Virus record (IMG/VR): IMGVR_UViG_2541047712_000002
Source of the DNA: a virus
Taxonomy: Duplodnaviria; Heunggongvirae; Uroviricota; Caudoviricetes
Strand: one strand, 5' to 3'
Length of the DNA: 64,000 nt
In this document: piece by piece, positions 882 to 60,760 of the stretch
Position numbering within the stretch: position 1 is the first letter of the stretch
How the letters are laid out: each line of letters opens with the position of its first letter
Translations under genes and position numbers: made by a program
The notes under the pieces: generated by a model
Seen by the model: only the letters and a program-made list of their open reading frames with translations
The model's database searches: none
Told to the model about the DNA's origin: nothing

Positions 882-924
882 CTAATACTAGAAAACAATT
901 TGTTTAAAAAACAAAGGAAAGCAC

Positions 925-2265
925 ATGACCGAACTTTGCCATACAGGACGCGGGCTGTCCGAAGAGTTTGATGAAGATTTCCAGAACAGACTGACGGCAT
1001 ATTTTTGTCGTGATCACGAGTTTCTTACTCGTGCGGGAGATCTGGTTGTGCCTAGCCAATTTGCCAATGCGGCCAATGCCATATTGGTTAATATGGTTTC
1101 GGGCTATTACCGTATGTACAAGAGCGCGCCCTCTTCATCTGCAATTCTGGATATGCTTAAGCGTGCGAAACGCGATAAGACTATCCGTGAGGAACTATTC
1201 GCAGATGTTGTTGCTGCGTTTAAGCGCATTCTTGCAGAAAAATTGTCCGATACCTCGTACATGGTTGACCAGGTATCAACCTTCGCAAAAAGTGTAGCGT
1301 TTGATGATGCTCTGATTAAGGCTGCTGAACTGAAAGAGAAAGGCGACTTTCAGGGGGCGATGGCAATCATGGCCAAGGTTCAGCAGATTGGATCGAACGA
1401 AGCGACCGGAATCTATGACTACTACACCTCCGCAAGTGAGCGATTGAAAGCGCGTGAATATGAGGCTTCAGAGGAGTATGTACCAAACAGTATTACAACT
1501 GGACTCCCTCTTCTCGATAGGTTGCTGTACCAAAAAGGCTGGGCAAAGCGCGAAATGGTGCTCTTCATGGGGTTCGCTAAATCCGGTAAATCGACCGCAA
1601 TGGGTGAGTTTTCCATAAACGCAACACTTGCTGGCTACAATGTTCTGTATCTCTCGCTGGAGGTTCACACCACCATTTTATCCGACCGTTTTGATGCAAG
1701 ATTGTCGGAGACGGAAATGTCCAAGTTGGTGGAACGGCGCGATGAAGTTCATCGCAAGTTGGCAGAGTTGGGAGCTACGAAGGGTATTGGTAGTTTGTGG
1801 GTTGTTGAGCGTCCGTCAGGAAGTATGTCACCGGCAGATCTGGACCGTATGCTTAACAGCATGAAAGCCAACGGCATGGTGCCTGACATGGTTGTTGTCG
1901 ACTACGCAGATTTGATGCGTGCCAGTTATGACCTTCGTGATGATCGCGCCAACATTCGTAGTATCTACACCGATTTACGTGCTCTTTATGACAAGCATAA
2001 CGTTGCTGGGATCACGGCATCGCAGACAAACCGTGAAGGTGGCGCGTCAGAAGTTGCCACAATGATGCACGCTGCCGACAACATCGAAAAAGTACGTATT
2101 GCTGACCTGGTAATAACGATCAACAAAACCGAAGAAGAAGAAGCGAAAGGAGAGGCTCGTCTCTACTTTGCTGGTTCACGTAACCAGCAGGGAGGGATCA
2201 GCATTCGCGTTAAACAAAACCTCGAACAAATGCGCTTCATTGAGCGAATCTTAGACGTTACCTAA
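925..2265 (+). CDS. DnaB-family replicative DNA helicase
   Basis: Walker A GFAKSGKST, Walker B-like VVVDYADLM, SQTNREG motif; ATG preceded by AAAGGAAAGCACATG. Confidence 0.85.
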   Translation: MTELCHTGRGLSEEFDEDFQNRLTAYFCRDHEFLTRAGDLVVPSQFANAANAILVNMVSGYYRMYKSAPSSSAILDMLKRAKRDKTIREELFADVVAAFKRILAEKLSDTSYMVDQVSTFAKSVAFDDALIKAAELKEKGDFQGAMAIMAKVQQIGSNEATGIYDYYTSASERLKAREYEASEEYVPNSITTGLPLLDRLLYQKGWAKREMVLFMGFAKSGKSTAMGEFSINATLAGYNVLYLSLEVHTTILSDRFDARLSETEMSKLVERRDEVHRKLAELGATKGIGSLWVVERPSGSMSPADLDRMLNSMKANGMVPDMVVVDYADLMRASYDLRDDRANIRSIYTDLRALYDKHNVAGITASQTNREGGASEVATMMHAADNIEKVRIADLVITINKTEEEEAKGEARLYFAGSRNQQGGISIRVKQNLEQMRFIERILDVT

Positions 2266-2274
2266 AAAATAAGC

Positions 2275-58308: not shown

Positions 58309-59994
58309 ATGAATACAGCCCTTTCCATCATCGACGATGCCAACTCAAACACTGCTATCGACTATCGGCAGGAAATGAACGTCATCCACGAAATTGTGGC
58401 CGAGTGCGAGAAAGAGATCGCCTTCATGTATCAGGTTCACGACTTCGTTTATGGCGACGAACGCCACAACATGATTAATCGCCTGCTGAGACTAAACCAT
58501 CGACCAGATGAAGATCGCTCGCGTTTAAATCGAGGTTGGTTGGATAAAGTCGATCTGGAATGGGTGAAACAGAATATTTGGGCCGAGTACTGGAGGAAGG
58601 TCACGGACATGACTAACGTTTTGCTGATCATGCCAGCTTCCCGTCGAGATGAGTGGCGCGAGCAGTTTATAGAGGGCAAACAGGAAGTCATCAAAACTGA
58701 CAGAACCGGCTACCAGATGAAGGTTAAAGAGTTCGTTGGTGTACCGGAGTTCAAAGCAGAAACGGTCATACCCACGATGCTTAATTTGCTGAATGACAGG
58801 CACAAATATCTCTCTGAGCGCGTGTATGGCTTGTTTAAGGCGCTGAGTCCTGCGCACAAGACAAATAAGACAAACGGTTTCAGCGAGCGTCTGATAATCG
58901 CTGACTGCATTTCTGATTTCTGGCGGGACAGCGTTAGCGTGAACTATCGCAAAGAGGACTACATCGACGATCTGCGTGTCTTGCTTCATTTCTTCGCGCA
59001 CAAAGAATTTATTACCATCAACCGCACTGCTGAGGTGCTATCAGCTGCGTATCGGGCAAACGACTGCCAGACCGGTGACTGGATGAACGTCGATGGAAAT
59101 CTGATGCGCGTGAAGATGTTCAAGAACGGCAACGTTCACTTTGAAATACATCCTGACGTGGCCTGGAAGTTGAATGAGGTGCTGGCTTACAGTATGCCTG
59201 CTGCAATTCCCGCGCCATGCCGAACTGCGCCAAAAACACGGGCACCAAAGCAGTTCGGGTTAATCCAGAAGACGATCTCCGTGCCGGTTCGCACTGCGCT
59301 TCGTGACGGGCGATTGAGCAAAGACAAAGGCGTATGGTACTTCTCTGATTCAGCTCTCCAGAAGTCGCAGGTGGAAGAGCTTGAGCGCACACTGAGCTTC
59401 ATTGGCGGCGTGCAGGAGAAAAAGCACTGGCAGTTCCCGTATGAGATCGGCCATACGCTAAATACGATTGTGGCTACCGGATTAATACCGGATACAAAAT
59501 CACACCAGTTCTACCCTACCCCACGCTTGATTGCTGAGTACGTTGCCAGAGCCACTGAATTGAAGTCTGGTGAGAAGCTGCTGGAGCCTCAAGCCGGACG
59601 TGGGGATCTTCTGGCCTATATCAACGCCGATCTGGAAGATGTTACCTGCATAGAAATCGCACCTCTCTTCGCTGATATCCTGCGCGGAAAAGGGTATACG
59701 AACACGATTTGCTGCGACTTCATAAAGTGGTCTGAGGACAACGTAGGTTATCAGTTCGACAAAATCGTTATGAACCCGCCGTACTCGCTTGGTCGTCATA
59801 GAGAGCACACGCTGGCTGCGCTGGGGCATCTGAAAGTCGGCGGGCGTCTTGTAGCAGTATTGCCGGGCACTGCGCCAATACTGGACTGGATGACGATGGA
59901 TAATTACGTTTATGCCAGAGGGAAGTCGTTTACCAACGAGTTTGAAGACACAGGGATCACAGTCAGCGTATACGTTTTCAAACGCGTTAAATGA
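58309..59994 (+). CDS. DNA methyltransferase (NPPY type) with large N-terminal domain of unknown function
   Basis: C-terminal motif I LLEPQAGRGDLL and motif IV VMNPPY; about 390 N-terminal residues unassigned. Confidence 0.6.
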   Translation: MNTALSIIDDANSNTAIDYRQEMNVIHEIVAECEKEIAFMYQVHDFVYGDERHNMINRLLRLNHRPDEDRSRLNRGWLDKVDLEWVKQNIWAEYWRKVTDMTNVLLIMPASRRDEWREQFIEGKQEVIKTDRTGYQMKVKEFVGVPEFKAETVIPTMLNLLNDRHKYLSERVYGLFKALSPAHKTNKTNGFSERLIIADCISDFWRDSVSVNYRKEDYIDDLRVLLHFFAHKEFITINRTAEVLSAAYRANDCQTGDWMNVDGNLMRVKMFKNGNVHFEIHPDVAWKLNEVLAYSMPAAIPAPCRTAPKTRAPKQFGLIQKTISVPVRTALRDGRLSKDKGVWYFSDSALQKSQVEELERTLSFIGGVQEKKHWQFPYEIGHTLNTIVATGLIPDTKSHQFYPTPRLIAEYVARATELKSGEKLLEPQAGRGDLLAYINADLEDVTCIEIAPLFADILRGKGYTNTICCDFIKWSEDNVGYQFDKIVMNPPYSLGRHREHTLAALGHLKVGGRLVAVLPGTAPILDWMTMDNYVYARGKSFTNEFEDTGITVSVYVFKRVK

Positions 59995-60055
59995 TAGGTA
60001 AATACTTACCTAATTTGTGTAAGAATGTAGTTACTAAACGATAAGAGAAAAACAC

Positions 60056-60760
60056 ATGAACAACCTCCAGTTAGAGCATTTTAACGTCACAGGCCATTCT
60101 GATTTTCCTTTCAAGTTTACATTGAAAGGTTATGCAGAGGATACGGTAGGCCAGATCATTATTGATAAAGGCATCGTTAAGTTTGAGGGGAATTTTGATG
60201 AATCCGCGAAAACATTCATAGACTTCGTTGCCAAACGTTGGAGCGAGCAATGGAAAGGCCTGGAAAAGCGCGCTAATGAGTTTGATCGGTTCATGGATGC
60301 AATGGATACAGCAAAAGAGGCTCTTGCTGCCGGGACTCCGTTAGATCTGGAGTCACTTTTCAACGGCGAAGTGGCCTCTGCGATGTTCGCCACCATGTTC
60401 GCGGGTGAGTTCGTCCGCAGCGGTGCCAAAAACTACCTTGAGCTGGATTACAACGTCCCTGCAATTGGCGATTTCGTCGTTACCATCCAACGCAAAGAAG
60501 GTAAGACGCCAGGTGAACGCGTCGCAGAACTTGAGGCTGTTGTGGATCAGCGTAACGGAGAGTGTGACCGTTTGATCAACGAGCTTCATGCACTTCGGGA
60601 AGAAAGAATATGCGAGGGTAGTAATACACGTAATGCAGCGGATATCTACTTCCAGTTAGTTGAGGAATGCCAGATTCCACCAGGTGGCTCTCTTGTCGAT
60701 TACGTCGGACATTTAATGGCGGAAGTTAACTCCAGCCATAAAGATGGTGAGGTGCGCTGA
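60056..60760 (+). CDS. hypothetical protein
   Basis: 234-aa ORF with GAGAAAAACACATG context. Confidence 0.45.
   Translation: MNNLQLEHFNVTGHSDFPFKFTLKGYAEDTVGQIIIDKGIVKFEGNFDESAKTFIDFVAKRWSEQWKGLEKRANEFDRFMDAMDTAKEALAAGTPLDLESLFNGEVASAMFATMFAGEFVRSGAKNYLELDYNVPAIGDFVVTIQRKEGKTPGERVAELEAVVDQRNGECDRLINELHALREERICEGSNTRNAADIYFQLVEECQIPPGGSLVDYVGHLMAEVNSSHKDGEVR

Follow-up and report, generated by a model that had tools for sequence, protein, structure and literature searches.

A ribosome-site cassette and a dispersed palindrome, pal1, head the non-structural gene units of SSU5-like phage-plasmids and may act as a strong ribosome-binding site and a repressor operator

The stretch of viral DNA analysed here (IMG/VR record IMGVR_UViG_2541047712_000002; 64,000 nucleotides, hereafter the window) carries two short repeated elements in front of its non-structural genes: a 13-nucleotide (nt) cassette that ends at the start codon, and a 13-base pair (bp) palindrome, pal1, that lies further upstream. 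Megablast searches with positions 33000-47000 returned Escherichia phage Cyrano (OV696614), an SSU5-like phage-plasmid of E. coli LF82, at 99.3% identity over 100% of the query, and Salmonella phage SSU5 at 78% identity; by this similarity the window is itself an SSU5-like phage-plasmid. A first impression of a Bacteroidetes-type promoter or leader, raised by the A-rich starts, was dropped, the window being an enterobacterial phage-plasmid. Comparisons drew on the full genome sequences, with their annotation, of Cyrano, SSU5 and Klebsiella phage pJN2-26. The genes at the starts of interest encode a DnaB-like helicase (ATG at 925), a primase (2347), a CobT-like protein (18510), an AAA_5 protein (20714), the DNA polymerase III alpha subunit (22130), a gp32-like single-stranded DNA-binding protein (28149), a DUF7238 protein (34009), an SbcD-like protein (38716) and NrdB (45749).

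With up to two mismatches allowed, the cassette AAAGGAAAAACAC occurs 13 times in the window against 3.1 occurrences expected (none of 100 shuffles reached 13), and 11 of these copies lie on the + strand immediately 5' of an ATG. A scan requiring at least 9 of 13 matches in exact register before the start codon of an open reading frame (ORF) of at least 66 amino acids (aa) likewise retrieved 13 starts, all on the + strand. Exact copies precede three of them, a 91-aa protein (34477-34489, ATG 34490), the SbcD-like protein (38703-38715, ATG 38716) and NrdB (45736-45748, ATG 45749). The remainder are CAAAGGAAAGCAC at 912-924 before the helicase (ATG 925), AAAAGAAAAACAC at 2334-2346 before the primase (ATG 2347), AAAGGAAAAGCGC at 20701-20713 before the AAA_5 gene, whose product is CobS-like (ATG 20714), AAGGTAAAAACAC at 22117-22129 before the polymerase gene (ATG 22130), CAAGGAGAAACAC at 28136-28148 before the gp32-like gene (ATG 28149), CATAGGAAAACAC at 32870-32882 before a 66-aa membrane protein (ATG 32883), the variant TAAGGAAACCAAC at 53609-53621 before a 76-aa protein (ATG 53622), AAAAGGAAAACAC at 55947-55959 (ATG 55960), TTAGGAAAAACAC at 56670-56682 (ATG 56683) and AAGAGAAAAACAC at 60043-60055 before an Ead/Ea22-like gene (ATG 60056). 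Every match in the window with at least 10 identical positions precedes a + strand ORF, of 66-1172 aa. Most of the cassette starts listed in the first-pass annotation of the window are thus confirmed in register; the primase start moves from 2346 to 2347, that at 18510 proves to be a weak variant, and 53622 had been omitted. The cassette suggests that ATG 2347 is probably the true primase start, and the same cassette and ATG are found in SSU5 and pJN2-26; Cyrano and SSU5 are annotated instead from a downstream GTG. A second start that differs from existing annotation is that of the DUF7238 gene, an ATG at 34009 in the window and an ATT in the Cyrano record.

The distribution of the cassette was examined across all starts of Cyrano, where match counts are bimodal: a main mode of 2-6 matches is followed by a second mode of 9-13 matches that holds 13 of 123 genes, against 0.25 expected from random 13-mers. 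This bimodality rules out that the motif reflects a mere AT-rich Shine-Dalgarno (SD) bias rather than positional conservation relative to start codons. All 13 Cyrano cassette genes fall between CDS32 and CDS93, each behind an intergenic gap of 43 nt or more. Among the 25 structural or lysis genes the cassette is absent. The terminal CAC at -3 to -1 follows the same division, being present at 12 of 98 non-structural genes versus 0 of 25 structural ones. The cassette thus marks the first genes of non-structural units devoted to replication, recombination, nucleotide metabolism and small accessory functions.

The cassette consists of an AAGGA Shine-Dalgarno sequence, an aligned spacing of approximately 5 nt and a spacer made of A and C only, with no G or U, that ends in CAC; it is often preceded by AACCACA. 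AAGGA is complementary to the UCCUU of the anti-SD at the 3' end of 16S rRNA, the G residues of the cassette are confined to that core, and the GGA lies at -10 to -8 relative to the start codon on the coding strand. Among orthologues of Cyrano, SSU5 and pJN2-26, identity averages 0.78 at positions -13 to -1 and reaches 1.00 at -1; within codons it is 0.51 for third positions and 0.80 for the first and second. By these values the cassette is under purifying selection. It is retained despite divergence of the encoded proteins to 58-62% identity (CobS-like) and even 31% (the 189-aa protein at 56683). Across orthologues, AACAC does not move relative to the ATG, and the distance from the SD to ACAC shifts by 1-5 nt. 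Predicted initiation regions are more open for cassette genes than for other genes, with minimum free energies of -8.6 versus -14.3 kcal/mol and unpaired probabilities at -15 to +6 of 0.64 versus 0.49 (p ~1e-4). The exact 18-mer ACAAAGGAAAAACACATG was found in 67 stretches of a viral contig collection, 41 of them SSU5-like and 26 in contigs devoid of SSU5-like genes; in the SSU5-like stretches it precedes at least three non-homologous genes, and an ORF always follows it in the 26 unrelated contigs as well.

We hold with high confidence that the cassette is a functional class of ribosome-binding site. ORFs of unrelated phages begin with the 18-mer too, for which a private regulator is not required; the cassette is therefore probably a strong ribosome-binding site of a generic kind, open and near-optimal, with which this phage family equips the first genes of its early units, rather than a private regulator site. 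It would act as a consensus high-efficiency site at the heads of these units, where the A/C-only stretches around the SD would hold the initiation region open because A/C-only sequence after, and often before, the SD cannot self-pair. The first-pass annotation had proposed either a shared extended Shine-Dalgarno or a regulator site; the former is borne out by AAGGA and its conserved spacer, and regulator binding is not needed, given the same 18-mer in the 26 unrelated contigs.

The other option, that a trans-acting factor, either a translational regulator or a nuclease, recognises the cassette and exerts coordinated post-transcriptional control over early genes, be it RegA-like as in T4 or of the kind proposed for the SAS elements of mycobacteriophages, has arguments of its own. 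The conservation extends beyond what 16S rRNA pairing requires, AACAC keeping its register with the ATG as the SD moves; the cassette starts form a discrete class, found in the non-structural block alone; and the architecture parallels that of SAS and its extended relative ESAS, discussed below. A candidate protein is CYRAN_114 (Cyrano 100780-101301, outside the window), a full-length match to the FljA family (PF03614, repressor of phase-1 flagellin; E = 1e-80) with a further weak Hfq/Sm-like match. FljA of Salmonella is a repressor that acts on the fliC mRNA leader. CYRAN_114 shows moderate expression in the lysogen; it may turn off the flagellin of the host or have phage leaders as its targets. 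T4 RegA sites are AU-rich, include the AUG, lack a fixed SD-spacer cassette and belong to early replication-type genes; in the SSU5-like element too, early replication-type genes (homologues of T4-like gp32, UvsY and gp46/47) share a conserved sequence overlapping the initiation region. Yet no RegA homologue is listed in the curated annotation of Cyrano, the FljA homologue is more simply viewed as a host-directed accessory gene, contigs devoid of SSU5-like genes have ORFs that begin with the very same 18-mer, and no experimental result points to control of this kind. We consider a translational regulator of the cassette quite unlikely.

The second element, pal1, is the palindrome AAACAA-N-TTGTTT, which also has an extended, slightly asymmetric form AGA-AAACAANTTGTTT-A. 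With at most one mismatch, seven copies are present in the window, where 0.42 would be expected; none of 100 shuffles reached that number. On the + strand, AAACAATTTGTTT at 893-905 lies 5' of the helicase ATG 925, with AGA on its left flank and a -10-like TAATAC at 883-888; the variant AAATAATTTGTTT at 18478-18490 precedes the cobT-like ATG 18510, with an extended -10-like TGcTACATT at 18457-18465, 12 nt upstream; a further AAACAATTTGTTT at 33980-33992 stands 5' of the DUF7238 ATG 34009 after a terminator-like hairpin and T run; and the variant TAACAACTTGTTT at 45711-45723 lies 5' of the nrdB ATG 45749, where a candidate promoter comprises TTGTAA (45684-45689), a 16-nt spacer and TAAGAT (45706-45711), downstream of a terminator-like hairpin at 45654-45672. 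AAACAACTTGTTT is found twice, at 55923-55935 before the TerB/TciA-like gene (ATG 55960) and at 56652-56664 before the 189-aa gene (ATG 56683), the latter with a -10-like CACAAT at 56633-56638, 13 nt upstream, and a terminator-like hairpin at 56546-56567. The seventh site, a variant in reverse orientation with TCT on its right flank (61192-61204, - strand), directly follows a hairpin at 61171-61191 and lies 19 nt upstream of an extended -10-like TGtGAAAAT (61221-61229), so that it would overlap the -35 region of a rightward promoter. The palindromic sites noticed at first pass are real, the element being longer than described, at 13 bp, and the sites at 18478 and 61192 having been missed; a second palindrome claimed at 45692-45705 turned out to be a half-site, in which the right arm and its flank (CTTGTTTAAACAC) recur in direct orientation (45692-45704 and 45717-45729, + strand).

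Allowing one mismatch, Cyrano contains 18 pal1 sites, SSU5 20 and pJN2-26 17, with orthologous positions at terS, parA, helicase, cobT, nrdB, the tciA-like gene, the 189-aa gene and a small-gene cluster. In Cyrano, 16 of the 18 sites are intergenic (P ~1e-12) and the other two fall inside doubtful ORF calls. The arms are invariant between orthologues and the centre base changes; over 119 non-redundant contexts it is A in 40, T in 29, C in 25 and G in 25. The helicase site is kept with a different centre base in SSU5, pJN2-26, Kluyvera, Buttiauxella and two more divergent contigs (70-80% helicase identity), the cobT sites of SSU5 and Klebsiella are perfect palindromes, and at 56652 palindrome and cassette are both kept although the orthologous proteins are only 31% identical. 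Outside the SSU5 family, the viral contigs searched yielded single chance matches only, in low-GC contigs; non-SSU5 contigs with two or three palindromes are of low GC content and carry them inside genes, and were set aside as chance.

The setting of pal1 points to promoters. Terminator-like hairpins precede most units, so that the promoter must lie in the short stretch that contains pal1. Upstream of forward sites, a -10-like hexamer ends 13±1 nt away in approximately 21 of 55 cases, 17 of them with a TG extension (typically TGCGATAAT or TGGTATTAT), from which we infer start sites that would place pal1 at about +7 to +19. Thirty-two of the 55 sites face the downstream gene and seven are inverted, with TCT on the right; the latter come after a GC hairpin, with TGtGAAAAT or TGaGATAAT 19 nt further downstream, which would put them over the -35 region. 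Several modules hold both arrangements 51 bp apart. The distance from pal1 to the ATG is variable (16-25 nt in the window, 11-35 nt elsewhere). Nor is there a significant association between pal1 and the cassette (Fisher p = 0.10; five of the 13 cassette starts have pal1 upstream), and what had been described as one composite gene-start cassette separates into two independent elements, the palindrome being apparently anchored to the -10-like element and not to the ATG. Its RNA hairpin is worth only -0.7 kcal/mol, five leaders gave z-scores of -0.8 to +1.1 relative to shuffles, and Rfam returned no match at pal1 or cassette sites; an RNA hairpin, an attenuator or another structured cis-regulatory RNA is thereby ruled out. 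Of the two functions offered at first pass, a site for a transcriptional regulator fits the palindrome, whose apparent anchoring to the -10 and lack of RNA structure would suit a DNA operator. Canonical two-hexamer sigma-70 promoters were also considered and discarded, with nothing at the sites and fewer matches overall than in shuffles.

It may be asked whether pal1 acts instead in the mRNA leader, as an A/U-rich translational enhancer or a landing pad for ribosomal protein S1 or Hfq just 5' of the SD. Forward sites are predicted to lie in the 5' untranslated region, 11-35 nt before the ATG, and pal1 is A-rich and then U-rich; the T7 gene 10 leader AAATAATTTTGTTTAACTTTAAGAAGGAG seems a comparable case. 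However, a strict dyad with a free centre base is needless for a protein that binds single-stranded RNA, the seven inverted sites lie upstream of the -10 and would hence be outside the transcribed leader, it is the distance to the -10 and not that to the SD or ATG that appears fixed, and some sites, as at terS, precede terminator-like hairpins instead of SDs. A leader role is accordingly very unlikely. The late (terS) operon itself, outside the window, has one or two pal1 sites upstream (Cyrano 57-69 and 82-94; SSU5 56 and 81; pJN2-26 38628), immediately followed by a GC hairpin and T run (AGAGCGC-atgga-GCGCTCT-gtgtgtttt) and then by the terS SD, an arrangement that resembles a promoter-proximal terminator that would need antitermination. 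A similar order of palindrome and terminator is found at SSU5 80773, upstream of the ant gene.

The repeated modules also coincide with breaks in gene order. Synteny among relatives ends exactly after a conserved promoter element (...TTATTTGTGAAAATAAC) at window 61205-61233, Cyrano 85831-85858, SSU5 85615 and pJN2-26 21786, different genes following in each genome, and the promoter-operator modules appear to serve as junctions for accessory-gene exchange. That the elements are conserved mainly as patches of recombination homology, marking module boundaries for the swapping of gene cassettes, would agree with this break after the reverse-orientation element GTGAAAATAAC, beyond which the window, Cyrano, SSU5 and Klebsiella differ, and with the many different ORFs found behind the same promoter-palindrome module. 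It leaves unexplained the dyad symmetry, the apparently fixed relation to the -10, the SD content and the purifying selection at orthologous diverged sites, and exchange is more likely a by-product of repeated regulatory DNA; we regard recombination as highly improbable as the main reason for conservation.

Expression of the units was taken from the supplementary RNA-seq table of the LF82 prophage paper, which covers the lysogen in LB and in macrophages and includes no true induction condition (PMC9928086). The first genes behind pal1 are at background (log2 ~2.3-5) in the LF82 lysogen; these include the helicase, cobT, DUF7238, nrdB, tciA-like and small-gene units, among them units with a near-consensus extended -10, the exception being the parA-CYRAN_29-30 operon, which is expressed (PMC9928086). 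That strong activator-independent promoters are yet silent argues for repression via the adjacent conserved dyad. We are moderately confident that pal1 is bound as DNA by a protein and is associated with promoters, and we lean, with less assurance, towards a binding protein that represses. For the combined reading, in which two separate cis-elements head the non-structural gene units, pal1 as the dispersed operator of a phage-plasmid-encoded repressor and the cassette as a strong ribosome-binding site, we would put the probability at roughly 0.6. As such an operator, pal1 would be present in 17-20 copies per genome at approximately +7 to +19 of promoters for sigma-70 that depend on an extended -10, its reverse-orientation copies covering the -35 region, and a dimeric DNA-binding protein encoded by the phage-plasmid would bind it and keep the promoters off in the plasmid-prophage state.

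Several observations weigh against this combined reading. Pairing with rRNA leaves the invariant CAC at -3 to -1 unexplained, and the low predicted structure of cassette leaders follows partly from composition alone. A sigma-70 scan requiring both hexamers found no promoter at pal1 sites, so that promoter assignment rests on the -10-like elements; their fixed spacing to pal1 is found mostly in a cluster of paralogous small-gene modules and may partly reflect duplicated DNA ancestry, and weak -10 candidates at other distances are all that the helicase, nrdB, cobT and terS sites offer. The binder is represented by candidates only. Finally, promoters dependent on an activator that is produced during lytic growth alone would be just as silent in the lysogen. 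Pal1 could on that account be a loading or activation site at which a lytic activator or Q-like antiterminator engages RNA polymerase near the start and carries it past the inter-unit terminators. The hairpins that precede most units, the two palindromes (Cyrano 57 and 82) followed by a GC hairpin and T run before terS, and the several sites that have only weak -10 candidates are in keeping with this. Against it stand the many sites with a near-consensus extended -10 (TGnGATAAT), normally activator-independent, that are nevertheless silent in the lysogen, the curated annotation of Cyrano, which lists no Q-like or sigma-like gene, and the predicted centre of pal1 near +13, a classic repressor position; lac O1 is centred at +11. 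Overall we find an activation site improbable.

To the best of our knowledge, none of the consensus sites of host transcription factors (KdgR, PhoP, IHF, 434 repressor, the GntR family and others) fits pal1, and we found no description of either motif in the literature consulted on SSU5, pHCM2 or Cyrano. Candidate DNA-binding proteins are CYRAN_29, 45, 37, 62 and 123; those made in the lysogen include CYRAN_45, which has a weak helix-turn-helix (HTH) match, CYRAN_29, antitoxins and others. An attempt to name the binder by covariation was abandoned: all relatives found, down to 70% helicase identity, keep the identical palindrome, and there is therefore no covariation signal. CYRAN_29 is encoded immediately 3' of parA, behind a pal1 site, and its homologues (49-100% identity) share an invariant N-terminal MGDLAKR, an Arg-rich arm and the invariant segments SRTMS.EDE and FTRSDVIRAAI. 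Its fold gave no Pfam match, no PDB profile match and an empty Foldseek result, the AlphaFold model being poor (pLDDT 64), and it has a weak, below cut-off match to the archaeal ribbon-helix-helix regulator family aCcr1 (E = 2e-4).

In one particular form of the operator reading, pal1 would be a site of the partition apparatus, bound by CYRAN_29 and acting both as a centromere-like element and as a global silencer of early promoters, in the manner of KorB and its operator OB or of N15. A perfect palindrome is present in the parA promoter region of all relatives, as the usual autoregulation logic would have it; the parA-CYRAN_29-30 operon is among the few units expressed in the lysogen; the invariance of the CYRAN_29 segments matches that of the palindrome; the aCcr1 match, sub-cut-off as it is, is to a ribbon-helix-helix family; and precedents exist in the OB and OA palindromes of RK2 and in IR1-4 of N15. 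Apart from the unconfirmed fold, the difficulties are that small-ParA centromeres are usually arrays of repeats and parA has a single pal1 site, and that, if CYRAN_29 represses every site, its own operon must escape repression. This version is unlikely. A two-layer control of early genes, comparable to the SAS/ESAS system of mycobacteriophages, would combine it with a reader of the cassette: CYRAN_29 or another lysogen-made protein, on the ~20 palindromes, would couple plasmid maintenance to early-promoter silencing, and a phage RNA-binding factor (for instance the FljA-like protein) would read AACAC-AUG and so time the translation of replication genes. Such a scheme is speculative and, in our estimate, a little less probable still.

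A second dispersed palindrome, pal2, bears on which protein binds pal1. This 18-bp sequence (TAGGTAAGT-ACTTACCTA) forms 15 clusters in the window against ~1.7 raw matches in shuffles, with copies at 110-127, 7066-7083, 10000-10017, 17977-17994, 20637-20654, 28046-28063, 32832-32849, 34785-34802, 38585-38602, 43269-43286, 47979-47996, 52813-52830, 55026-55043 and 59995-60012. It typically lies inside the spacer of a sigma-70-like promoter, as in TTGAAA-17 nt-TATTAT at 32826-32854, and the gene at 17561-17947 (- strand), which putatively encodes the master repressor, has one copy in its promoter region. The cassette genes at 20714, 28149, 32883, 38716 and 60056 have pal2 rather than pal1 upstream. 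The lysogen and macrophage RNA-seq does not clearly separate pal1 from pal2 units. Pal2 is a candidate operator of an HTH repressor, putatively the master repressor CYRAN_45, to which it is better suited than pal1, and pal1 is therefore left for another protein.

As an operator system pal1 is of an ordinary kind, a dispersed dyad operator with nothing mechanistically surprising about it, and several systems offer points of comparison. The C1 operators of P1 and the 'stoperators' of L5 are many copies of a short, asymmetric site, bound by the master repressor, that keep lytic units silent in the prophage. Pal1 resembles them in that a single short site recurs many times throughout the genome of a temperate phage, with silencing presumed in its case, and differs in being palindromic and in that pal2 is the better candidate for the putative master repressor CYRAN_45. 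The KorB operator OB (TTTAGCGGCTAAA) and the KorA operator OA (GTTTAGCTAAAC) of plasmid RK2 are likewise short palindromes (12-13 bp; OB of the form 6+1+6) that are dispersed, promoter-proximal and coordinate many operons, and KorB doubles as a partition protein, a parallel to the presence of pal1 at parA; the sequences differ, and a ParB-CTPase link would be hypothetical for pal1. The two ParB_N proteins of the SSU5-like element are not expressed in the lysogen. In the phage-plasmid N15, IR1-IR4 are also single palindromic sites scattered over the genome rather than gathered in one array, but there are four sites of GTGCGACCnnGGTCGCAC bound by SopB, in contrast to 17-20 A/T-rich, promoter-tied sites with a hypothetical partition role.

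The closest described analogue of the whole arrangement, as an analogue and not a member, is the SAS/ESAS system of Cluster K mycobacteriophages. Described in 2011, it consists of a 13-nt SD-containing element, matching its consensus with up to two mismatches, 3-8 nt before mostly ATG starts, in the non-structural half of the genome only, approximately half of the copies having an upstream inverted repeat that does not suit an RNA hairpin and for which a DNA-binding protein was proposed as the ligand; the L5 stoperators are mentioned in the same work (PMC3203893). Its function was still unexplained in 2025. Both systems have a 13-nt asymmetric element with an SD core a few nt before starts, present in 11-19 copies in one orientation in the non-structural half and kept across subclusters or relatives in front of unrelated genes; here none of the 25 structural genes carries it, all copies are on the coding strand and five of 13 have pal1 upstream. 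The sequences are unrelated (GGGATAGGAGCCC versus AAAGGAAAAACAC), as are host phylum and phage family; in ESAS two imperfect repeats of 17 bp are separated by 4-13 bp, in contrast to the single perfect 13-bp palindrome of pal1; palindrome and cassette are statistically independent in the SSU5-like element; and SAS is almost exclusive to Cluster K, unlike the SSU5-like cassette, which also occurs in unrelated phages.

Other features of the window were noted in passing. A low-GC (35%) insertion relative to Cyrano at 11933-16199 carries a fimbrial chaperone-usher operon encoding a fimbrial subunit, a PapD-like chaperone, an usher and one more small ORF, as accessory cargo of the phage-plasmid. 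A full-length Rfam match to the cspA thermoregulator at 25927-26345 (- strand; 187.6 bits, E = 7e-50) implies that a cspA-like cold-shock gene and its 5' untranslated region are carried on the phage-plasmid; the Cyrano counterpart (50263-51112) has no CDS annotated. Near 7912-7998 lie tRNA-Asn, tRNA-Tyr and tRNA-Ser genes, a set that differs from the Asn, Thr and Ser tRNAs annotated in Cyrano. A LexA-box-like CTGT-N8-ACAG is found at 61293-61308, directly 5' of an S24 peptidase (UmuD/LexA-like) gene at 61327, and another approximately 50 nt upstream of 16463, directly 5' of the integrase gene; according to the LF82 RNA-seq, expression of the S24 peptidase and integrase genes rises strongly within macrophages.

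Clinical isolates of E. coli, Salmonella and Klebsiella commonly harbour SSU5-like phage-plasmids, which carry resistance and virulence cargo, and almost nothing is known of how they switch between plasmid life and lytic growth. Pal1 defines a testable regulon of approximately 18-20 promoters and, together with pal2, a first transcription-unit map of the family, from which the regulators could be sought. The cassette is of practical use in correcting start codons, as with the primase and DUF7238 genes. The parallel with SAS/ESAS suggests that a ribosome-binding-site class accompanied by an upstream dyad may be a recurrent arrangement in temperate phages.

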